Source of the DNA: an uncultured Planctomycetales bacterium
GTDB taxonomy: Bacteria > Omnitrophota > Gorgyraeia > Zapsychrales > JANLHA01
Length of the DNA: 64,000 bases
Assembly (NCBI GenBank): GCA_964474085.1
Contig: CAYYRJ010000005.1
Span: 23,244 to 87,243 of the forward strand
Direction of reading: 5' to 3'
The position numbers and the translations under genes were made by a program. How positions within the stretch are numbered: the stretch's first letter is position 1; every line of letters starts with the position of its first letter. The notes below the pieces were generated by a model. The model ran no database searches. It was not told the origin of the DNA and was given only the letters and a program-made list of their open reading frames with translations. Of this stretch, positions 10,111 to 59,526 are shown one piece after another.

Positions 10111-10763
10111 TGCCCAAAAAGTGCGTTGTCCTTCTTTCCGGCGGCTTGGATTCCGCCACCACTCTTTTTTACAGCCAAGCTAAGGGGTATCAAACGTATT
10201 GTTTGATTTTTGACTATGGCCAGCGCCATGCCAAAGAAATTTTGCAGGCGCAAAAATTAGCCCGCTATACAAAAAGTGAATACCGCATAATTAAGATTCG
10301 TCTCCCGTGGGGCGGGTCAGCGCTTTTGGACAAAAAAGTGGATCTTCCTAAAAACCGCAAGGATATGTCAGGAGAAATTCCTGCAACCTATGTTCCGGCA
10401 CGTAATATCATTTTTTTAAGTTTTGCCGCCTCTTATGCGGAAGCGCTTGGGGCCAGGGCGATTTTTATAGGCGCTAATGCGGTTGATTATTCGGGGTATC
10501 CGGATTGCCGGCCGGAATTTTATGAGGCTTTTGCACTCGCGCTTAAGCGGGGTTTAAAGACAGGCGTTGGAGGAAAACCGATCAAAATTTATACGCCGCT
10601 TATCCGCAAAACCAAAGCGCAGATTATCCGTTTAGGACAAAAACTCAAAGTGCCTTATGAGCTGACCTGGTCCTGTTACGCCGGCGGCAAAAAGCCCTGT
10701 GGGGTGTGTGACAGCTGTCTTATCCGCGCCAAAGGTTTTGCAGAGGCGAAAGTTGGTCAGTAA
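10107..10763 (+). CDS. queC: 7-cyano-7-deazaguanine synthase
   Basis: LLSGGLDS PP-loop and C-terminal CxxC...CxxC zinc motif (CGVCDSC). Confidence 0.9.
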   Translation: MMPKKCVVLLSGGLDSATTLFYSQAKGYQTYCLIFDYGQRHAKEILQAQKLARYTKSEYRIIKIRLPWGGSALLDKKVDLPKNRKDMSGEIPATYVPARNIIFLSFAASYAEALGARAIFIGANAVDYSGYPDCRPEFYEAFALALKRGLKTGVGGKPIKIYTPLIRKTKAQIIRLGQKLKVPYELTWSCYAGGKKPCGVCDSCLIRAKGFAEAKVGQ

Positions 10764-10770
10764 AAGTCTT

Positions 10771-11469
10771 ATGCAAACCGCTAAAGTTTCAGAAATTTTT
10801 GTGTCTATTCAAGGCGAGGGGCCGTATGCGGGCTTAAGGCAGGTTTTTGTGCGTTTTTTTGGCTGTCATATGCACTGCACTTGGTGTGACACGCCCGAGT
10901 CGATTGGGGACACGTCGGGCGATTACAAAGAGATGACGCTCATGCAGGTTTTTGCCAAAATCAAAACGTTGTTTAAAGACTGTCATTCGGTTAGCTTAAC
11001 CGGTGGGGAGCCGCTTTTGCAGGTGGACTTTATTAGCAAGCTTTTGCCGCTTTTGAAAAAAGCAAAGATGCCGGTTTATTTGGAAACCAGCGGTGTTCTT
11101 CATAAGGCTTTAGCTCAAGTGATTAAGAACATTGACATTGTGGCGATGGATATTAAAATGCCTAGCTCGACGGGTCAGAGGGCTTTTTGGAAGCAACACC
11201 AGGAGTTTGTCGCCACTGTTTTAAAGCATAAAAAAGATTTTTTTGTCAAAGCGGTTGTTTCAGCCAACACAGACAAAAAGGATATTTTAAAAACAGTGCA
11301 GATATTAAGTCGTGCAAAAAAAGAGGTGCTTTTTATTTTGCAGCCCAATACCTTTGATTTAGAAAAAGGTGCTGTCGAGAAATGCGATAGCTTTGCGCGA
11401 TTGTGTTTTAAAACATTACCCAACACGCGCGTTTTGCCGCAAATGCATAAATTTATGAAAATCCAATAG
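10771..11469 (+). CDS. queE: 7-carboxy-7-deazaguanine synthase (radical SAM)
   Basis: EIFVSIQGEG and CHMHCTWCDT cluster motif typical of QueE. Confidence 0.8.
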   Translation: MQTAKVSEIFVSIQGEGPYAGLRQVFVRFFGCHMHCTWCDTPESIGDTSGDYKEMTLMQVFAKIKTLFKDCHSVSLTGGEPLLQVDFISKLLPLLKKAKMPVYLETSGVLHKALAQVIKNIDIVAMDIKMPSSTGQRAFWKQHQEFVATVLKHKKDFFVKAVVSANTDKKDILKTVQILSRAKKEVLFILQPNTFDLEKGAVEKCDSFARLCFKTLPNTRVLPQMHKFMKIQ

Positions 11470-11487: not shown

Positions 11488-11889
11488 GTGAAACAAAGAA
11501 AAAGTTCTTATGAGGGTTTGCAGTCGCACGTGCGCAACTTACCAACGCCACAGATTGAAGTTTGGGAAAACGAGTATGCCGATCGGCAGTATCAGATTAC
11601 TATCGAAATCCCGGAATTTACCTGCATTTGTCCTAAGACGGGTTTGCCGGATTTTGCGACGATCAAAATCGATTATGTCCCTGGCAAAACATGTCTTGAA
11701 TTAAAGTCGCTTAAGATGTACATCGTTTCATATCGCGATGTGGGGATTTTTCACGAGCATCTCGTTAATAAGATTCTCGACGATATTGTCAAAGCCTGTG
11801 GCCCGCGCTCGGCTACTGTTTCGGCAATTATGAATCCCCGCGGCGGCATTGCAACGACGGTACGCGCCGAATTTAAAAATAAAAAGTAA
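11488..11889 (+). CDS. queF: NADPH-dependent 7-cyano-7-deazaguanine reductase (type I)
   Basis: 133 aa; EFTCICPKTGLPDFATI (QueF Cys/QueF motif). Confidence 0.85.
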   Translation: MKQRKSSYEGLQSHVRNLPTPQIEVWENEYADRQYQITIEIPEFTCICPKTGLPDFATIKIDYVPGKTCLELKSLKMYIVSYRDVGIFHEHLVNKILDDIVKACGPRSATVSAIMNPRGGIATTVRAEFKNKK

Positions 11890-11906
11890 TTGGAGAGGTT
11901 TATTCG

Positions 11907-12088
11907 ATGAATTTTACGGCTCAAGAAACGGTCCCCAGTGGATGGAATATAAAAATAAGAAATAGCTAGAGGGTTAAGGTGGTTAATTTTTAAGGCGAAT
12001 CGGAACGCAGCCCCGATTTTATCCCGCCGATAGGCGGGACTCCAGCGGGGATCGTTTCTTGAGCCGTAAAATTAACCACCTTAACCCG
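11907..12088 (+). repeat. 181-nt structured element: permuted inverted repeat (21-bp and 18-bp perfect arms) with internal GC hairpins
   Basis: 11910-11930 is the exact reverse complement of 12054-12074; 11971-11988 is the exact reverse complement of 12071-12088; inner hairpin CCCGCC-GATAG-GCGGG at 12023-12039. Confidence 0.6.
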
Positions 12089-12107
12089 ATAATAAATTGG
12101 AGGAAAA

Positions 12108-12815
12108 ATGATCAGATCCGACGGACGAAAATTTAATCAGTTGCGCAAAATCAAAGTGACAGTGCCTTTTAATAAGCATGCCGAAGGTTCCTGTTTAATT
12201 GAATTTGGTGACACACGGGTAGCCTGCACGGCGACGGTTGAAGAAAATGTCCCGCCATTTTTGCGTAATTCCGGCAAAGGCTGGGTCACTGCCGAGTACG
12301 GGATGCTGCCGCGTTCAACGAATACGCGGCTTAATCGGGACAAAACGCTGACGACGGGTCGCACGCTTGAAATCCAGCGGCTCATCGGTCGTTCGCTTCG
12401 GGCTGTGGTTGATACAAGCAAACTCGGTGAGCGGACTATTAAAATTGATTGTGATGTTTTGCAGGCCGATGGGGGGACGCGCACAGCGTCGGTGACCGGC
12501 GGATTTATTGCATTGGCTTTGGCGGTCAAAAAATTATTAAAGAGCGGCGTATTAACAGCCAATCCGCTTTTGGATTCTGTGGCAGCAGTCAGCGTCGGGA
12601 TTTATAAGGGGCAGCCGGTTTTGGATCTTCCTTATGAAGAGGATTCCTCAGCGGACATGGACATGAATGTCGTTATGGTCGGCCAAGGCAAGTTCGTCGA
12701 AGTGCAAGGCACGGCGGAAAAGGACCCGTTTTCTAAAAAGCAAGTCGATGCCCTTTTGAAGCTGGCTGAAAAAGGAATTAAAGAATTAATTAAAATACAA
12801 AAAAAATATGCGTGA
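12108..12815 (+). CDS. rph: ribonuclease PH
   Basis: Full-length RNase PH collinearity (DGR...LRKI..., [18 protein letters not shown]). Confidence 0.9.
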
Positions 12816-15458: not shown

Positions 15459-15474
15459 TAGCTTGTGTTAACGA

Positions 15475-15549
15475 ATCCAAAAATCCTTTTGTGGCTCAAT
15501 TATTTGGTCCCTACTTCAGGGACTATTCGCCGAAAAAGTATTTTCGGAT
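15475..15549 (+). repeat. structured intergenic repeat, family copy 1 (core GGCTCAATTATTTGG-hairpin-ATTCGCC inside a 16-bp imperfect outer stem)
   Basis: Shares conserved flanks with the copies at 28348 and 37420; inner hairpin TCCC-ACTTCA-GGGA differs but stays paired. Confidence 0.6.
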
Positions 15550-15678
15550 TGGCCAAGAGTGGGTCATTCAATTTTTGTATTCTACAATAAATATAAAAAA
15601 TTATTATTTTTAACTTAAACTTATTTGCCTATAATGGCGATAGAATTTTACTGGTGCACTGACAAAAGGGAGGAAACC

Positions 15679-28328: not shown

Positions 28329-28347
28329 ATTTTTTGCGTTAATTTTG

Positions 28348-28430
28348 CCGGTTCTCAAAGTCCTTTTTCGGCTCAATTGTTTGGCGCCTCTATGGCGCTA
28401 TTCGCCTTCAAAAGGACTTTGAAAACCGGC
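28348..28430 (+). repeat. structured intergenic repeat, family copy 2 (21-bp outer stem with one mismatch; core TCGGCTCAATTGTTTGG-CGCC-TCTAT-GGCG-CTATTCGCC)
   Basis: gccggttctcaaagtcctttt ... aaaaggactttgaaaaccggc encloses the conserved core. Confidence 0.65.
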
Positions 28431-28493
28431 AGCCAGCATGATGAAATGATCAATAAAAATATGTATCGACGTACTATAAAGGAAAAATAAATT

Positions 28494-32282: not shown

Positions 32283-33008
32283 ATGAATACGGCAAAAGAA
32301 TTTCAGCGTCTTAATGTTTATCTGGCCCATCAGGGGATTTGTTCTCGTCGAAAAGCGATGGAGGCGATTGCACAAGGCTTTGTCAGCGTCAACGGTAAAG
32401 TCGTTCGTGAGCCGTCAACGCCGGTTAATCCAGCTAAAGACCGGGTCGTTGTCGACGGCAAGATTGTTCAAAGAAAAGCCTATGAGTATATTATGCTCAA
32501 CAAACCCGTTGGGTATGTGACGACCCGAGAGGACCGTTTTGCGCAAAAAACGGTTTTGGACCTTTTGCCGACGGGCTTGCGGCATTTAAATCCGGTTGGC
32601 CGGCTGGACAAAAACACAGAAGGCCTTCTTGTGATGACCAATGACGGAGAACTGGCCAATCAGTTGACGCATCCGCGATATGATGTGGATAAGACCTATG
32701 TGGTGCAGATCCAAAAGAAATTAACTCCTGAGGACCACAAAAAACTTGAGACCGGTGTCGTGATCGACGGCGAAAAAACCGCGCCAGCCAAGATTGCGGG
32801 GCTTGTAGCTTTGAAAAACGGCTGTGAGTTTTTGATGACGATTCATGAAGGCCGCAAGCGGCAAATTCGGCTGATGCTTTCTCAAATTGGGCATTATGTC
32901 ACTTTTTTAAAACGAATACAGCAGGGGCCGTTGTCTTTGGCTAATTTGGAAACGGGAAAGTATCGGGCTTTGACAATGGATGAAATAAAACAATTAAAAA
33001 GGAATTAG
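32283..33008 (+). CDS. rRNA pseudouridine synthase (RsuA/RluB family, S4 domain)
   Basis: S4 region (RLNVYLAHQGICSRRKA) and catalytic NPVGRLDKNTEGLL motif. Confidence 0.8.
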   Translation: MNTAKEFQRLNVYLAHQGICSRRKAMEAIAQGFVSVNGKVVREPSTPVNPAKDRVVVDGKIVQRKAYEYIMLNKPVGYVTTREDRFAQKTVLDLLPTGLRHLNPVGRLDKNTEGLLVMTNDGELANQLTHPRYDVDKTYVVQIQKKLTPEDHKKLETGVVIDGEKTAPAKIAGLVALKNGCEFLMTIHEGRKRQIRLMLSQIGHYVTFLKRIQQGPLSLANLETGKYRALTMDEIKQLKRN

Positions 33009-33016
33009 TATCTTTA

Positions 33017-33140
33017 CTTTTATCTGCTTTACGTCGGAACGTTCGCCCGCCCCTGCGTATGGCGGGCTTACTCGAAGAAAAACTCGCTCTGATTCCATGC
33101 GAGCTTTGTTTTTCAACGTCCGACTACAAGCAGATAAAAG
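33017..33140 (+). repeat. structured element: about 25-bp imperfect outer stem enclosing two hairpins, one followed by a T-tract
   Basis: cttttatctgctttacgtcggaacgtt pairs with aacgtccgactacaagcagataaaag; inner GCCCGCC-(9 nt)-GGCGGGC; CTCGC-(11 nt)-GCGAG followed by TTTGTTTTT. Confidence 0.55.
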
Positions 33141-33170
33141 CAAAGCCATAAAAGGACAGTATTTTAAATT

Positions 33171-35117
33171 ATGATTACAATCAGCGGATTATCAAAAGGT
33201 TTTACAGGACGGACATTATTTAAGGATGTCAGCTTGAGCATTTTTGCCGGCGAAAAAATCGGTTTGACCGGTCCTAACGGATCAGGAAAGTCCACGCTTT
33301 TTTCAATTATCCTCGGGCAAATGGAGTCGACTGGTGGCAGTGTGCAGATGCAAAGGAATTTGAACATCGGGCATTTAGCGCAGGAAGCGCATTTTGCCTC
33401 GACGCAAACCGTGTTAGATGAAGTCACATCCGGAGATGACCGGATCAAAAAACTTTTGAAAGAAAAACATGAATTAGAAGATGCCAACAAAGCTGACAGC
33501 ATGCGTTATGGGGACATTTTGCAAGAGCTTGAGGCGGCCGGGATTTATGAACTGGAAAACAAGGCCGAACGGATTTTGACCGGTTTGGGTTTTAAGGAAG
33601 AAGAATTTCATAAGCCGGTCAATACCTTAAGCGGCGGCTGGCAGATGCGCGCTCTGTTGGCCAAGCTGCTTTTGTACCCGTACGATATTATTTTGCTCGA
33701 CGAACCGACAAACTATTTGGACTTGCACGCCACATTGTGGCTTAAGGGCTTTTTGGCCAGTTATCCGGGGACGTTTGTCATTATTTCGCATGACAAGATT
33801 TTTTTAAACGATGTCACCAATTACACGATCGTTTTGGAAAACGGGCAGATGACCAAGATCAAGGGAAATTATCACGCGTATGAAGAGCAAAAAGATTTAA
33901 TGCTGCGCTCGATGGAAAAAAAGCAGAAGTCCCTTGAACAAAAGAAAGACCAGTTGGAAAAATTTGCCCAGCGCTTTCACGCGCAGCCTAACCGTGCGGC
34001 CGCGGTGCGCAATAAACGTAAAATGCTCGAAAAGATTGAAGAGCAGCAAGTGGATTTGCCGCAGGAACGCCGCAGTATCCGCGACTTTGAATTTCCGCCG
34101 ACGCAAGAAAGCGGTTATGTCGTTGCTAATGCGCAGAACTTAAGCAAAGCTTACGGCGAGAAACAAGTTTATAAAAACTTGGACTTGGAAATTATCAAAG
34201 GCCAGAAGATTTGTTTGATCGGTCCCAACGGCGCGGGTAAATCGACCTTGCTTAAAATGCTCGCCGATATTATCCCACCGGATGCGGGGAATGTGAAGCT
34301 TGGCTTTAATGTGACGCGCGGGTATTTTTCGCAGACGCGGTTGGATGTTTTAAACCCCAACAATACCGCGTTGGAAGAACTTGCGACAGCCTCCAGCAAA
34401 AGTGTTCCGGCGCAAACGATGCGCACGCTTTTGAGTATTTTTAATTTTCGTGGCGATGATGTTTTTAAGCACGTCAAGGTTCTCTCCGGTGGGGAAAAGA
34501 GCCGTTTGATTTTGGCGAAGTTATTATTAAATCCGCCGAATTTTGTTCTTCTCGATGAGCCGACAACCCACTTGGATATCGACGGGGTCGAAGCGTTAAC
34601 CGAGTGTTTTCAAAAATATCAGGGCACGCTTGTTTTTATCAGCCACGATCTTTTTTTTGTGAAAGAAATCGCAGATCATATTATTGAAGTCGATCGCGGG
34701 CGGATCAAAATTTATTCGGGCGGGTTAGATTATTATCTGGACAAAAAGGCCGCTGGCGAAACGCTAGGCCAGGAAAGCGAGCGGGCCGCCCGTCAAGAAG
34801 AGTTGCGGATTAAGGATGAAAAACGCAAAGTTTTTGATTCTGAAAATCAAAAAATGCAAGAAGCGCGCAGTCAGCATAATCAGGCGCTGAAGAGACTCGC
34901 GGATATTAAAAAAGAAATCAAAGCGCTCGAGGACGAAAATAAGGAAATCGAGTCGGAGAGTTATGTGAAGGCACGGGTTCTTTCTAACGCCTACGGCAAA
35001 GATCCGCAAATGCTCAAAGAGTACGGTCAGAGGCTTAAAATGATACAACAGCGCGTGCGCGAGATAGCGACGAAAATCAAGGAATTGACAGAAGAGCGCG
35101 ACAGGATCAATAATTGA
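33171..35117 (+). CDS. ABC-F family ATPase (tandem ABC domains with C-terminal coiled coil; Uup/EttA-like)
   Basis: Two Walker A sites (GPNGSGKST, GPNGAGKST), two LSGG signatures, no TM domain, Lys/Glu-rich C-terminal tail. Confidence 0.85.
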   Translation: MITISGLSKGFTGRTLFKDVSLSIFAGEKIGLTGPNGSGKSTLFSIILGQMESTGGSVQMQRNLNIGHLAQEAHFASTQTVLDEVTSGDDRIKKLLKEKHELEDANKADSMRYGDILQELEAAGIYELENKAERILTGLGFKEEEFHKPVNTLSGGWQMRALLAKLLLYPYDIILLDEPTNYLDLHATLWLKGFLASYPGTFVIISHDKIFLNDVTNYTIVLENGQMTKIKGNYHAYEEQKDLMLRSMEKKQKSLEQKKDQLEKFAQRFHAQPNRAAAVRNKRKMLEKIEEQQVDLPQERRSIRDFEFPPTQESGYVVANAQNLSKAYGEKQVYKNLDLEIIKGQKICLIGPNGAGKSTLLKMLADIIPPDAGNVKLGFNVTRGYFSQTRLDVLNPNNTALEELATASSKSVPAQTMRTLLSIFNFRGDDVFKHVKVLSGGEKSRLILAKLLLNPPNFVLLDEPTTHLDIDGVEALTECFQKYQGTLVFISHDLFFVKEIADHIIEVDRGRIKIYSGGLDYYLDKKAAGETLGQESERAARQEELRIKDEKRKVFDSENQKMQEARSQHNQALKRLADIKKEIKALEDENKEIESESYVKARVLSNAYGKDPQMLKEYGQRLKMIQQRVREIATKIKELTEERDRINN

Positions 35118-36255: not shown

Positions 36256-37416
36256 ATGACCAAAACGATTCTGCACGTCGATCTTGACGCGTTTTTTGCG
36301 GCTGTCGAGCAAAGGGATAATCCGCAGTGGCTTGGGCAACCGGTTGTCGTCGGTGCAGATCCTAAAGCGGGAGCTGGCCGCGGCGTTGTATCGACCTGTT
36401 CGTATGAAGCGCGTGCGTTTGGCATTCACAGCGCCATGCCGATTTCTAAAGCCTATCAGTTGTGCCCGTCAGCGATTTTTGTCCCGCCTAATTTCAAAAA
36501 ATACAACGAAGCTTCCCGAGCTGTTTTCAAAATTTTTTATGACTTTACGCCGCACATCGAAGCTTTGAGTATCGATGAAGCGTTTTTGGATATGACGACG
36601 AGCGCCCATCTTTTTGGCGGCGCTCTGCTTGCAGCCAAACGTTTAAAAGAGAAAGTGCGCCAAGACGTTGGACTGACGGCGTCGGTAGGCATTGCGCCGG
36701 TCAAGTTTGTTGCCAAAATCGCATCTGATTTATCCAAGCCCGACGGATTATTAGAAGTTGCGCAGACTCAAGTTATCGAATTTTTAAAACCGCTCAAAAT
36801 CGAGCGGCTCTGGGGCGTGGGGCCTAAGACCGCCGAAGTTTTACACGCTTGTGGGATTCAAACCATCGGAGAGTTGGCCCAGATTTCTCTTGAAGATTTG
36901 CGCGATAACTTTGGCGAAAGCGGGGAGCATTTGTTTAACTTGGCGCATGGTAAAGATGAGCGTGATGTCGTCGAAGAAACAGATATTAAATCGGTCAGCC
37001 ACGAGCATACGTTTGATCGGGATAGCAACAATATCGAAGAGATTTTGGCTATCATGCTTTCATTGTCCGAACAAGTTTCGCGCCGGCTTCGAAAGTACAG
37101 CTTGAAAGGCAGGACAATCACCGTTAAAATACGTCTGCATGGATTTCAGACGTATACCCGCGCCCAGACTCTGGCGGAACGGACGAATTTTACCGACGTG
37201 ATTTTTGGGACAGCAAAAGAAACATTGCAGAAGTTTTTCAAGTCCGGAATGAAGGTGCGATTGATTGGGGTTAAGGTCAATAATTTTGAGGACGATTATA
37301 TTCAGGAGAGTTTGTTTTCTGCCCCCGACAATGAACGCCGGGAAAAAATTCATTCGGCCGTTGATGTGATTAAAACGAAGTTCGGCGAGGATGCAATCGT
37401 AAGAGGGAAGGTATAA
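36256..37416 (+). CDS. dinB: DNA polymerase IV (Y-family)
   Basis: ILHVDLDAFFAAVE, SIDEAFLD and VGIAPVKFVAKIASD motifs; full-length collinearity. Confidence 0.9.
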   Translation: MTKTILHVDLDAFFAAVEQRDNPQWLGQPVVVGADPKAGAGRGVVSTCSYEARAFGIHSAMPISKAYQLCPSAIFVPPNFKKYNEASRAVFKIFYDFTPHIEALSIDEAFLDMTTSAHLFGGALLAAKRLKEKVRQDVGLTASVGIAPVKFVAKIASDLSKPDGLLEVAQTQVIEFLKPLKIERLWGVGPKTAEVLHACGIQTIGELAQISLEDLRDNFGESGEHLFNLAHGKDERDVVEETDIKSVSHEHTFDRDSNNIEEILAIMLSLSEQVSRRLRKYSLKGRTITVKIRLHGFQTYTRAQTLAERTNFTDVIFGTAKETLQKFFKSGMKVRLIGVKVNNFEDDYIQESLFSAPDNERREKIHSAVDVIKTKFGEDAIVRGKV

Positions 37417-37419
37417 GCG

Positions 37420-37502
37420 ACAGAGTTGATATTGAGTTTTTCGGCTCAATTGTTTGGCGCCTCTATGGCGCAATTCGCCTAAAAACTCAATATCAACTCT
37501 GT
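37420..37502 (+). repeat. structured intergenic repeat, family copy 3 (perfect 22-bp outer stem; core CGGCTCAATTGTTTGG-CGCC-TCTAT-GGCG-CAATTCGCC)
   Basis: acagagttgatattgagttttt is the exact reverse complement of aaaaactcaatatcaactctgt; core nearly identical to copy 2. Confidence 0.7.
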
Positions 37503-37524
37503 CAATCATATAGGAGATATTGTT

Positions 37525-40298: not shown

Positions 40299-42782
40299 TC
40301 ATTGATCCAAAATATCTTCGAGCATTCCTTGTATCCCTTCAAAGATCGATCCGGTTGTTTTTTCTAGAACTTTTAAGGGGAGAATTTTGTATCGGACTTC
40401 TGGGGTGGTGATTGACCCGGTGAGTTTTATTCCGACGACATTTTTGACCACTTGAGAAATAATTGTTGTTGGAACAGCCTGAAGAGCTGAGGCAGTGACG
40501 ATCGGCGCTTGCCGCACTTTTGCAATCACATCAAAATTCAGCTGGCCGTTTAAGCTCAACGAACCGCGTGCTGAAATATCGGCAGGCTCGCTTTCTAAAA
40601 GAAGATCCTCGGTTTTGATAAATCCGTCCTGGACTTTAAAAGTCGCTTTGCCCTGCGTAAAAGCGATTTTGCGATAATCCTCGACGAGCAAATTGTTAAA
40701 TAAAACTTTCCATATCCCTTTGAGCATTTCCAACTCCAGGAGTTTTCCCTCTTTGATGGTTATCGCGCCATCTCCCTTGAGAGCTTTGTAATCTTCAAGC
40801 GGGCCTTTAAGATTGACATTTGCCGATAAGATTCCAGATAGGTCTTTATTTTTGAGCCTGGGAAAAGTATTTTTTAGTCGTTGAACATTAAGTCTTGTAA
40901 TGCTCGCCGCAATTTCGCTGGGCACATTTTCTTGTTGCAGCGCAACGTTGGCATCTACGGAAAGTTTTCCATCGTAAACAAGGCCTTCTAGGCGGATATT
41001 TTGACGCTGACTGGCTGTTTTAAAATCAACAGAAACATCAAAGTCTTTTCCTGAAACGTTTGCCTTAATGTCAGGGGTACTAAAATGTTTAATCGTCCCT
41101 GAAAGCGATAGTGGCGTTTGTCCAAGAGTCAGCGTAAGATTTTTGCTCGAAGCCTCATCCGCACCAAAAGCGAGTTGACCGGTGAGGTTTTTTATTTGAG
41201 TAATTTTTGGAATTCCCTGGAATGTGTCGTTTGAGAAATGAATGACGCCGCTTGGGATCATCTTGTTGTCGTCGATGGCGGGATTACGGGAAAGCGTCAA
41301 ATCACATTGCGGATTGCCTGCAAAAGATATTTTGTTTGGCCAAAGGAGCTTTAAGTTTTCCGTTTTGAAATCGCCTCGGGCGTTCAAAATTTCATCAGTC
41401 GAATCGATTTTAATATTCTGGGCCGTTGCACTGCCATCGACCTGTGTTGTCAAAAATAGTCCCGAAAGATTTTTTGCCCGTAAATCAGGGATGTCTAATA
41501 GAAAGCCGTTTTTATGCCTATTAAATTTCCAGTTGGTTGTAGCTTGGTTTATGGCAATGTCCCAAACAGGATCTTTGAACGTTGAATTTGTGATTTTGCT
41601 TTCGCCCGCAAGGACTAGTTTGTCATCGAATTTATCAAAAAATATTTTCTTTGTTTCAATGTCGCCGATTAGGGTTTCTTTCGCCCAAAGTATTTTCGCT
41701 TTTTGTGCTGAAAGGTCCCCTGTCATCGTAAAATGATCGCCGGATTTTTGAAATGTAATCGCTGTCCCCGAAAAATTACCCGAAAACATTTTGTCTGCGC
41801 CTACCGCAACGCTCGTATCGGTTGCTAAAAAGTTTCCGGCAAGATCAAAATCGCGTCCCCGTTTATGGTAAATGAAGTTTTTGGAAGTGATAACGCCAGT
41901 TGTTCTTACGGCAATGTCCGTTTTGGTCGTAATATCGACGGGTCCAGCGATCATGCCCTTGAGAGTCCACTGTTTGTTTTTAAATTGCACTGCAAGGTCA
42001 GCCTCGTCAATCAGCCAGCGGTCAAAAACAACATAGAGCGGCACGCCGGTTAAATGGATCAAGCGCGGAGGGTTTAAGTTGTGTGTTTTTATGGAAGCGT
42101 TTAATTCTTGCGCTGCGGGAAAGAATTTTCCTTTCATGCTCAAAGTGCAATGGTCAGCTTCGATGACAAAATCAGATTCAAAGCGGATCGCATCCGGTAA
42201 AGACAGCTGCAGGCTTGCATGAAGCACGTTGATTGTTTCGCTTGTCGCAGGATCTGAAATAATGACTTGCCCATTTTGGATTTTGACGGCGCCCAGAGAA
42301 AACCTGACTTTCCCGGATTTTGTGCTAGAATTGTTCTCTGTCTTCGTCGGGCTTTTGGTTAGAAGATCAGAAAAGTTCCATTGGTCATCTTTTATGCGTT
42401 TAAGGTGAACAACCGGTTTGTCGAGTGTTATCGAGGGGATAAAAATTTCGCGGGCCCGAAAAAAGTTGGGAAGGACAATGTTAAATCGGACCTCATCGAT
42501 GCTAATAAACGCAACAGCAGAAGAAAGCTGCTCGTCAATGCGAATATTTTTAAGAATAAATCCTTTTTGCGGATGAAATTTTATTTCCCCGACGGAAACA
42601 TTGCGTTTTAGCCAGGCGGTTGCTTTTGCGCTAAGGATATCTTTGACTTGAAGGGGAAGAAAAATGGTATTTAGGTAAAATATTCCACCACCCAGGACAA
42701 GGCAAAGAAAGACAAGAATAAAAAACGTTTTTTTAAGCCAGCGCATGACGGGCATTATATAGAAAGCATCAGCGCGCTTCAA
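40299..42782 (-). CDS. AsmA/TamB-like large membrane-anchored protein
   Basis: 827 aa with N-terminal TM anchor followed by a long beta-rich repetitive domain; assignment from architecture. The true start may be an internal Met. Confidence 0.45.
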   Translation of the reverse strand: MKRADAFYIMPVMRWLKKTFFILVFLCLVLGGGIFYLNTIFLPLQVKDILSAKATAWLKRNVSVGEIKFHPQKGFILKNIRIDEQLSSAVAFISIDEVRFNIVLPNFFRAREIFIPSITLDKPVVHLKRIKDDQWNFSDLLTKSPTKTENNSSTKSGKVRFSLGAVKIQNGQVIISDPATSETINVLHASLQLSLPDAIRFESDFVIEADHCTLSMKGKFFPAAQELNASIKTHNLNPPRLIHLTGVPLYVVFDRWLIDEADLAVQFKNKQWTLKGMIAGPVDITTKTDIAVRTTGVITSKNFIYHKRGRDFDLAGNFLATDTSVAVGADKMFSGNFSGTAITFQKSGDHFTMTGDLSAQKAKILWAKETLIGDIETKKIFFDKFDDKLVLAGESKITNSTFKDPVWDIAINQATTNWKFNRHKNGFLLDIPDLRAKNLSGLFLTTQVDGSATAQNIKIDSTDEILNARGDFKTENLKLLWPNKISFAGNPQCDLTLSRNPAIDDNKMIPSGVIHFSNDTFQGIPKITQIKNLTGQLAFGADEASSKNLTLTLGQTPLSLSGTIKHFSTPDIKANVSGKDFDVSVDFKTASQRQNIRLEGLVYDGKLSVDANVALQQENVPSEIAASITRLNVQRLKNTFPRLKNKDLSGILSANVNLKGPLEDYKALKGDGAITIKEGKLLELEMLKGIWKVLFNNLLVEDYRKIAFTQGKATFKVQDGFIKTEDLLLESEPADISARGSLSLNGQLNFDVIAKVRQAPIVTASALQAVPTTIISQVVKNVVGIKLTGSITTPEVRYKILPLKVLEKTTGSIFEGIQGMLEDILDQ

Positions 42783-59452: not shown

Positions 59453-59526
59453 CGGGGAGTAGCGCAGCTGGCTAGCGCACTTGCTTTGGGAGCAAGGGGT
59501 CCCGGGTTCGAATCCCGGCTTCCCGA
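59453..59526 (+). tRNA. tRNA-Pro (anticodon UGG)
   Basis: Cloverleaf folded by hand: C1-G72 acceptor stem (typical of bacterial tRNA-Pro), D stem GCGC/GCGC, anticodon stem CTTGC/GCAAG with loop TTTGGGA, T arm CCGGG-TTCGAAT-CCCGG; no encoded CCA. Confidence 0.8.

Follow-up and report, generated by a model that had tools for sequence, protein, structure and literature searches.

The closest known kinds of element to the repeats described here are the REP/REPIN sequences, ERIC and the Correia elements. REP/REPIN sequences are reportedly intergenic palindromes that form hairpins from one strand and display conserved stem irregularities. ERIC and Correia elements are about 100–150 bp long, lie in transcribed spacers, come in size variants that differ by internal indels and carry a protein-binding core between inverted arms. 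A role as cis RNA hairpins in transcripts is the usual proposal for ERIC, Correia and REP elements. Small hairpin-loop inversions between short inverted repeats are well known in chloroplast non-coding DNA. No description of the Omnitrophota hairpin family was found in the literature and the family has no Rfam match; this repeat family of an uncultivated phylum is apparently undescribed.

The window, i.e., the whole 64-kb stretch of DNA that was analysed, carries between queF and rph a 181-nt feature that consists of a truncated and a complete copy, placed head to head, of one dispersed hairpin repeat shared by members of a Candidatus Omnitrophota clade. Note that the relatives of the window's RNase PH are labelled Candidatus Omnitrophica/Omnitrophota, and the depositor label Planctomycetales looks wrong. 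Three MAGs labelled 'uncultured Planctomycetales bacterium' (CAYNSM01, CAZNNZ01 and CAZWOH01; loci L012, L016, L019, L021, L023 and others) show 80–90% DNA identity and a common gene order with the window.

Anatomy of the queF–rph spacer

Pfam confirmed the gene calls of the preliminary description, with queD, queC, queE and queF upstream and rph and ham1 downstream. The spacer and its flanks are organized as follows:

11488–11889, + strand: queF, upstream flank (stop codon 11887–11889; Pfam QueF, 1.2e-29)
11896–11944, − strand: truncated family copy, which contains arm A of the preliminary description
11896–11915, − strand: outer arm of the truncated copy, AGGTTTATTCGATGAATTTT, orthologous to the L003 and L006 arms
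11916–11944, − strand: 3' end of a long-type core (29 nt) in the truncated copy
11945–11970: AT-rich filler of 26 nt between the truncated and complete copies
11969–12090, + strand: complete family copy of the long-core subtype, whole hairpin (outer bounds of its terminal stem P1, 11971–12087)
11971–11990, + strand: 5' arm of P1 (arm B), perfect 20-nt complement of 12068–12087
11993–12000, + strand: conserved 5' core motif AGGCGAAT
12002–12058, + strand: variable apical domain with P2 (GGAACG/CGTTTC), P3 (CCCCG/CGGGG) and P4 ((T)CCCGCC-GATA-GGCGGG(A))
12059–12066, + strand: conserved 3' core motif TTGAGCCG, which belongs to arm A'
12068–12087, + strand: 3' arm of P1 (arm B')
12108–12815, + strand: rph, downstream flank (Pfam RNase_PH, 1.5e-27)

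The two perfect inverted repeats previously reported in this spacer are both present and, as stated then, far beyond chance: shuffled sequences are expected to give 0.00–0.03 matches even with three mismatches allowed. Some of their boundaries needed correction. Arm A (AATTTTACGGCTCAAGAAACG, 11910–11930) is perfect and its partner A' is found at 12053–12073 rather than 12054–12074. Arm B (GGGTTAAGGTGGTTAATTTT) is also perfect, extending over 20 nt instead of 18, so that 11971–11990 matches 12068–12087 and not 12071–12088. The 40-nt gap between A and B stands. A' and B' are adjacent, as had been noted, but they do more than abut since they overlap by 6 nt (AAAATT, 12068–12073). The two GC hairpins exist but are nested, with P3 (CCCCG/CGGGG) enclosing P4 (CCCGCC/GGCGGG). 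The mini-ORF starting at ATG 11907 exists as well, with 20 codons that read MNFTAQETVPSGWNIKIRNS up to the stop; it is located within the truncated repeat copy and is not retained in L003, the closest relative with a single element.

The B:B' pairing is the terminal stem (P1) of the complete copy itself. The A:A' pairing is the conserved 3' end of the core, which occurs once in each of the two inverted copies and comprises a P2 strand, UUGAGCCGU and the first AAAAUU of P1. The crossing order A..B..A'B', the perfect match and the 6-nt overlap are thus found because a truncated inverted copy adjoins a complete one, and the perfection of the A:A' match results from family conservation, not from a design specific to this locus. 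The truncated copy (11896–11944) is the reverse complement of the right end of the L003 element through ...CCAGTGGATG, beyond which the sequences diverge; the matching right end of L003 is composed of the arm and ACGGCTCAAGAAACGGTCCCCAGTGGATG. The filler at 11945–11970 has no match to L003, L006 or other family copies.

On its own, the complete copy is predicted to form an unbranched rod (−68.4 kcal/mol, z = −8.9) in which P1 (20 bp) is followed by GGC/GCC, P2 (GGAACG/CGUUUC), P3 (CCCCG/CGGGG) and P4 (CCCGCC-GAUA-GGCGGG). The GGC of AGGCGAAT pairs with the GCC at 12063–12065, and GA opposite GA forms a tandem mismatch. The whole 218-nt spacer folds at −87 kcal/mol (z = −7.2). The rph ribosome binding site (GGAGG, 12099–12103) stays outside the repeat.

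The queF–rph junction in related genomes

The junction was compared in DNA surrounding RNase PH proteins 88–100% identical to that of the window:

L001 (near-identical strain): same spacer as the window, with two loop substitutions
L004/L005: empty junction; queF–rph gap of 10 nt (L004)
L007/L008: empty junction; queF–rph gap of 1 nt (L007)
L071/L072: empty junction; queF–rph gap of 11 nt (L071)
L070: empty junction; queF and rph overlap
L003: one 117-nt element with arms AGGTTTATTCTGTGAATTTT / AAAATTCACAGGATAAACCT and a core nearly identical to that of the window
L009: a pair of complete elements in reverse-then-forward order, each with individual arms, and with shorter cores
L006: right end of a reverse-oriented element only; the left part is an unrelated palindromic repeat
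L069: only the unrelated palindromic repeat seen in L006

Because the two genes abut or overlap in four relatives, the queF–rph element is an insertion into an originally tight junction. No hairpin is found at the empty queF–rph sites of relatives. The DNA of L007 (empty) and L009 (two copies) is 89% identical, and their spacers are too diverged for this filled/empty comparison to define the junctions of the insertion. Inspection by eye of aligned copies revealed no consistent direct repeat beside the arms, and no target-site duplication is definable for family copies. The present arrangement of the window may have arisen when an older copy of the long type, the flipped orthologue of the single L003 copy, lost most of its sequence. 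Its remnant would be the left arm and 29 nt of core at 11896–11944, beside which a further copy, complete and with another outer stem, would have come to sit head to head.

The spacers of relatives also contain a second, unrelated family of palindromic repeats (GTCATTGCGAGGAG...GAAGCAATC ... GATTGCTTC...CTCGCAATGAC) that is not found in the window. It is present in queF–rph spacers (L006 9800–9925, where it replaced the left half of the hairpin element; L069 1409–1490) and in rph–ham1 spacers (L007 10717–10803; L009 10717–10865). The rph and ham1 genes, which overlap in the window, are separated in L003 by a 128-nt insert (10718–10845) that is very GC-rich and strongly self-complementary. Unrelated cargo interrupts the que operon of two relatives by separating queC from queE, genes that overlap in the window: small DUF4160/DUF2442 genes in L003 (7455–8735), and MarR, DUF2071, NDH-2-like and epimerase genes in L004 (4071–8877). 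In L003, L006, L007 and L009, ham1 is directly followed by an AsmA/DUF748-like gene that corresponds to window positions 40299–42782. This adjacency identifies about 27 kb of the window (13400–40300, carrying three repeat copies) as an insertion or rearrangement relative to these genomes.

A dispersed family of hairpin repeats

Three additional copies were located in the window by searching for the shared core ends; their scores are those of a covariance model (CM):

15468–15555, − strand: compact copy between divergent genes (CM 61.4 bits)
28345–28431, − strand: compact copy, antisense to the flanking + strand genes (CM 101.6 bits)
37417–37504, − strand: compact copy 3' of a dinB-like gene, antisense to the flanking + strand genes (CM 91.3 bits)

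The copy at 28345–28431 folds at −49.8 kcal/mol (z = −10.7). The pattern AGGCGAATN{12,42}TTGAGCCGWAAAA has two matches in the window against 0.00 expected. The same pattern is found in 52 stretches of the GTDB representatives (one genome per species), of which 28 (30 matches) belong to six Omnitrophota MAGs, three of them bearing the Planctomycetales label, while the remaining ones are scattered singletons in unrelated taxa, in about the number due to chance. The covariance model R1 was built from 29 compact copies found elsewhere, with the queF–rph element left out. It scores the complete queF–rph copy at 42.8 bits (E = 2.5e-7) and finds four complete copies in the window and 42 matches across the fetched loci. 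The density of copies in the window is 4.4 in 64 kb; copy numbers per genome are lower bounds obtained from 8-kb MAG fragments. The short-read contigs L002, L045, L053, L054 and L068 begin or end inside copies (L002 and L068 start at or within arm B' of the complete queF–rph copy), and the repeats thus break short-read assemblies of these MAGs.

A scan of viral contigs gave 0 matches and provides no support for a phage origin. A search for long cores in metagenome contigs (GAATYGN{0,1}AACGCAGCN{25,55}TTGAGCCG) gave five matches, all without arms and attributable to chance, in a collection from which not even the metagenome of L001 was returned. Locus L052 (Candidatus Staskawiczbacteria, CPR) has at 1691–1773 a hairpin with the family core ends and complementary arms (32 bits, E = 6e-4), which could be a distant member, a case of horizontal transfer or a mis-binned contig. 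The window further contains a different long inverted repeat at 33012–33145, with 27-nt arms that are 85% complementary and 80 nt apart. It fills the 162-nt gap between ORFs 32283–33008 and 33171–35117, is without the family core and has no other copy in the fetched loci.

The preliminary description had listed the scar of a small mobile element among the candidate roles and had named an ordinary MITE as the outcome that would count against a special function. The evidence points that way: the repeat is dispersed, multi-copy and differs in presence or absence between genomes. It departs from a MITE in that its arms are copy-specific and not conserved terminal repeats shared with an autonomous IS. 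The suggested search for other copies of the 35-nt arm proved uninformative for this family, whose repeated part is the core: the 35-mer occurs once in the window, where both arms are unique. A match to an arm with three mismatches at 37268 is located inside the dinB-like ORF and is ascribed to chance.

It had also been proposed that the feature is a riboswitch-like two-state RNA or forms an H-type pseudoknot; at this locus, such an RNA would connect queuosine synthesis with the expression of rph. Two long pairings that exclude each other can be drawn and the spacer fold is very stable, as expected for such an RNA. However, the same core adjoins unrelated genes at other sites, in either orientation relative to them, while the queF–rph junction is without the element in four relatives and holds the unrelated palindromic repeat instead in a fifth (L069). 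Arm A belongs to the truncated copy, and both stems of the pseudoknot cannot form in full because A' and B' share 6 nt. The neighbours of the copies (rph, pyrBC, MTAP, dinB-like and GFO/IDH oxidoreductase genes) lack the functional coherence, and the copies the constant sense orientation, that characterize riboswitches. A scan with Rfam 15 that admitted E values up to 10 gave no match for the repeat other than chance-level ones (an IRES, a CRISPR repeat and generic hairpins of miRNA precursors). A locus-specific RNA of this type is hardly credible, and the false lead of a queuosine- or rph-specific riboswitch at queF–rph is removed. Note that the window's only Rfam match at gathering score is a tRNA gene (59453–59526).

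Conserved core and copy-specific stem

The family units are 78–123 nt long, the compact form having 87 nt. Each unit is predicted to be a single long hairpin composed of an outer stem, a conserved module and a variable apical helix. The outer stem has about 20 bp of copy-specific sequence and ends in U4/A4. The conserved module, 5'-A-GGC-GAAU...UUGA-GCC-G-3', features an A·G mismatch, three G-C pairs, tandem G·A/A·G and then A-U. The apex consists of a 5-bp P2 in compact units and of P2-P3-P4 in long ones such as that at queF–rph. The compact core, located between copy-specific arms, reads AGGCGAAT-W-GCGCC-AUAGA-GGCGC-CAAACAA-UUGAGCCG. Both GGCGAAT and TTGAGCC are invariant in 29 aligned compact copies, the A that precedes the former being C in one copy and the G that follows the latter being A in one. 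The GGC/GCC pairs of the core form in 100% of 41 sequences, and members of the compact subfamily are near-identical over the remainder of their cores. An outer-arm consensus, AGCYGATTTGGRAATCC, is weak and limited to the compact subfamily.

Standard pairs account for 96.6% of the stem cells, in an alignment that was guided by the model and therefore leans towards it. Changes on both sides are observed in 20 of the 21 outer-stem pairs, and the covariation score is 0.62, compared to 0.15 when partners are shuffled and no more than 0.135 when they are slid. The apical helices differ between copies too. P2 exists as GCGCC/GGCGC and as GUCCC/GGGAC, both complementary. Comparison of the window with L003 reveals a G-C to A-U exchange in P3 of the long subtype, and L050 has an unrelated but complementary helix in place of P4. 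Gene conversion between arms during flipping (see below) could, without selection, also yield the complementarity of the stems.

Several other interpretations of the unit were discarded. An IHF-like site, CTCAATTGTTTG, in the compact core fits the consensus partially and is not a family feature because the long-core subfamily does not have it. The GGC-GAA...GA-GCC module was inspected as a possible K-turn; it departs from the canonical form in having U where a G·A pair is expected after the 3-nt bulge. Insertion of the core into pre-existing hairpins was considered too, and a search for core-less palindromes resembling the arms found none.

Genomic context and strand specificity

All copies are intergenic. 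They usually lie 3–25 nt from the end of the upstream gene and 17–26 nt before the next start codon. The genome of the window has very few gaps longer than 100 nt, and the repeats occupy a large share of the few long intergenic gaps of this very compact genome. Of the 25 copies between co-directional genes, 11 have the sense and 14 the antisense orientation; two further copies are between convergent genes and two between divergent genes. Judged from local GC skew, 17 copies belong to the leading and 16 to the lagging strand. Directly adjacent pairs are arranged reverse-then-forward in 3/3 cases (window, L009 and L050), a small sample, and two additional reverse-then-forward pairs flank single genes (L021 and L055). 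The genes flanked by copies are housekeeping genes (pyrR/pyrB/pyrC, MTAP), and no partner protein was found among them. Comparison of the flanks of the copies revealed no conserved motif outside the hairpin, and no consistent promoter- or terminator-like sites are present in or beside the copies. Neither a transposase accompanying family copies nor lone conserved ends flanking ORFs, as in an autonomous parent element, were found.

The outer stems carry a strand-specific signature. On the strand reading AGGCGAAU...UUGAGCCG, their mismatches are G·U in 39 cases and A·C in five, and the excess (G·U : A·C) is distributed as follows:

Leading strand by GC skew: 21:2
Lagging strand by GC skew: 18:2
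Copies sense to the flanking genes: 13:1
Copies antisense to the flanking genes: 14:2

These counts are inflated as some copies are orthologous and U·G recurs at fixed stem positions, the independent G·U events being perhaps about half the count. A mutation bias of replication or transcription was considered as the source of the excess and rejected because the excess is equal in both skew classes and in both gene orientations. Folding predictions favour the core-sense strand over its complement, in 30/31 copies when DNA parameters are used and in 25/31 with RNA parameters. At the orthologous pair formed by the window copy at 15 kb and L016 (w15k/L016), inspection showed that the mismatches of each lineage are G·U-type on its own sense-core strand.

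Persistence at orthologous sites and core inversion

Copies are found at orthologous sites in genomes that are 74–90% identical in aligned flanking stretches. In most orthologous pairs the element is at least as conserved as the mostly coding flanks, for example 96% versus 75–80%. No recent near-identical paralogous copies were seen. The family may have spread long ago by insertion into short intergenic spacers, its copies persisting at orthologous sites while their cores occasionally flip between the stem arms. The P2 variant differs between orthologues that kept their arms (L012/L058 and w15k/L016).

The core is flipped relative to conserved flanks at three of nine orthologous pairs (w37k/L020, w15k/L016 and L019/L043), and the queF–rph copy is also flipped between L003 and L006/window. 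The occurrence of both orientations at the same sites is what would be expected of a programmed invertible switch of the fimS/hin type, in which the arms are invertase sites and the core toggles the neighbouring genes. Such a switch is nonetheless very improbable since near-identical strains (the window versus L001 and L062) agree in core orientation, flips being seen only between species 74–86% identical in aligned flanks, and the arms, which differ at every copy, offer no common invertase site. Moreover, the core has no promoter-like element, no recombinase is adjacent and the neighbours are housekeeping genes. The flips are most simply read as passive inversions between the stem arms, by analogy with chloroplast hairpin loops, and such inversions would account for them.

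Proposed function of the repeats

The queF–rph feature is a composite of old dispersed repeats that probably act as strand-specific single-stranded hairpins recognized by a protein, with the DNA form favoured. In every copy, the strand reading AGGCGAAU...UUGAGCCG would be maintained as a single-stranded hairpin, and the module of non-Watson-Crick pairs would be the recognition site of a putative protein. A hairpin at the DNA level, extruded or single-stranded as in REP/REPIN-RAYT, is preferred to RNA, if only weakly, because the strand preference ignores both gene and fork direction and no promoter or terminator travels along with the repeat.

The same features can be read at the RNA level. 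A structured RNA would just as well be expected to show G·U tolerance, tandem G·A and covarying helices, and copies could function as cis-acting hairpins in operon transcripts, for example as RNase III or processing sites, as stabilisers of 3' ends or as insulators between cistrons; the conserved module would then be an RNA-protein contact. This alternative is possible, if distinctly less probable, and agrees with the location of all copies between genes, many of them inside operons with the RBS left free, with the strong covariation and with the conservation of the copies, at or above that of flanking coding DNA in most orthologous pairs. Against it stand the 14/25 copies between co-directional genes that are antisense and display the same G·U excess as the sense ones, the flips at orthologous sites, which would swap sense and antisense in the mRNA, and the lack of a promoter to make the sense RNA independently. 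A DNA hairpin stays the preferred interpretation by a small margin.

Comparison with known repeat systems

The Omnitrophota family resembles REP/REPIN in being short, non-coding, intergenic, dispersed and long-lived at orthologous sites. REP/REPIN often form inverted doublets, and the proposed hairpin of one strand with conserved stem irregularities would be a further likeness. REPs differ in having 20–40 nt, a GTAG/CGTC tag, and conserved stems with a variable loop or spacer, whereas in the Omnitrophota family (78–123 nt) the core close to the apex is conserved and the stem of about 20 bp is copy-specific. The ends of the aligned copies carry no GTAG/CGTC tag and no RAYT gene was found in the 8-kb MAG fragments.

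ERIC/IRU of enterobacteria and Correia/NEMIS of Neisseria are, like the present repeats, imperfect intergenic palindromes found in either orientation. Their terminal inverted repeats are conserved and define the family, with a TA duplication in the case of Correia, while in the Omnitrophota family the ends vary from copy to copy, and neither a duplication nor a promoter nor an IHF site shared by both subfamilies was found. The recurrent flipping of a core between inverted repeats without a dedicated recombinase is shared with the hairpin-loop inversions of chloroplasts, which occur in isolated hairpins that bear no relation to one another and do not make up a conserved multi-copy family. Integron attC sites are similar in that one DNA strand folds, with conserved unpaired bases and little other conservation. 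However, attC sites have conserved boxes (RYYYAAC/GTTRRRY) at the base of the hairpin and a variable apex, and form arrays of the same orientation beside intI, whereas the conserved bases of the Omnitrophota family are internal (AGGCGAAT/TTGAGCCG) and its copies are scattered in both orientations.

Transposase-dependent MITEs and REPINs have conserved ends. The Omnitrophota family is the opposite, with outer stems that differ greatly between copies. Its unusual traits are that the core ends are near-invariant across species while each copy has a private, co-evolving stem, and that the strand kept foldable follows the orientation of the core and not transcription or replication. A measurable strand-specific tolerance of wobble pairs further sets it apart from REP/REPIN, ERIC and Correia elements. 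It may tentatively be proposed, as one of the less likely outcomes, that the repeats are conserved strand-specific ligands, as single-stranded DNA or as RNA produced by an unrecognised route, of a dedicated Omnitrophota protein that would read their invariant A·G/GGC/tandem-G·A module, rather than decaying selfish DNA. Were this the case, core flipping could change which genomic strand bears the active hairpin, and a partner protein, if it exists, would give a handle on a new nucleic-acid recognition system. The repeat and its protein would then form a partnership comparable to REPIN-RAYT but built inversely, with a conserved apex and a free stem.
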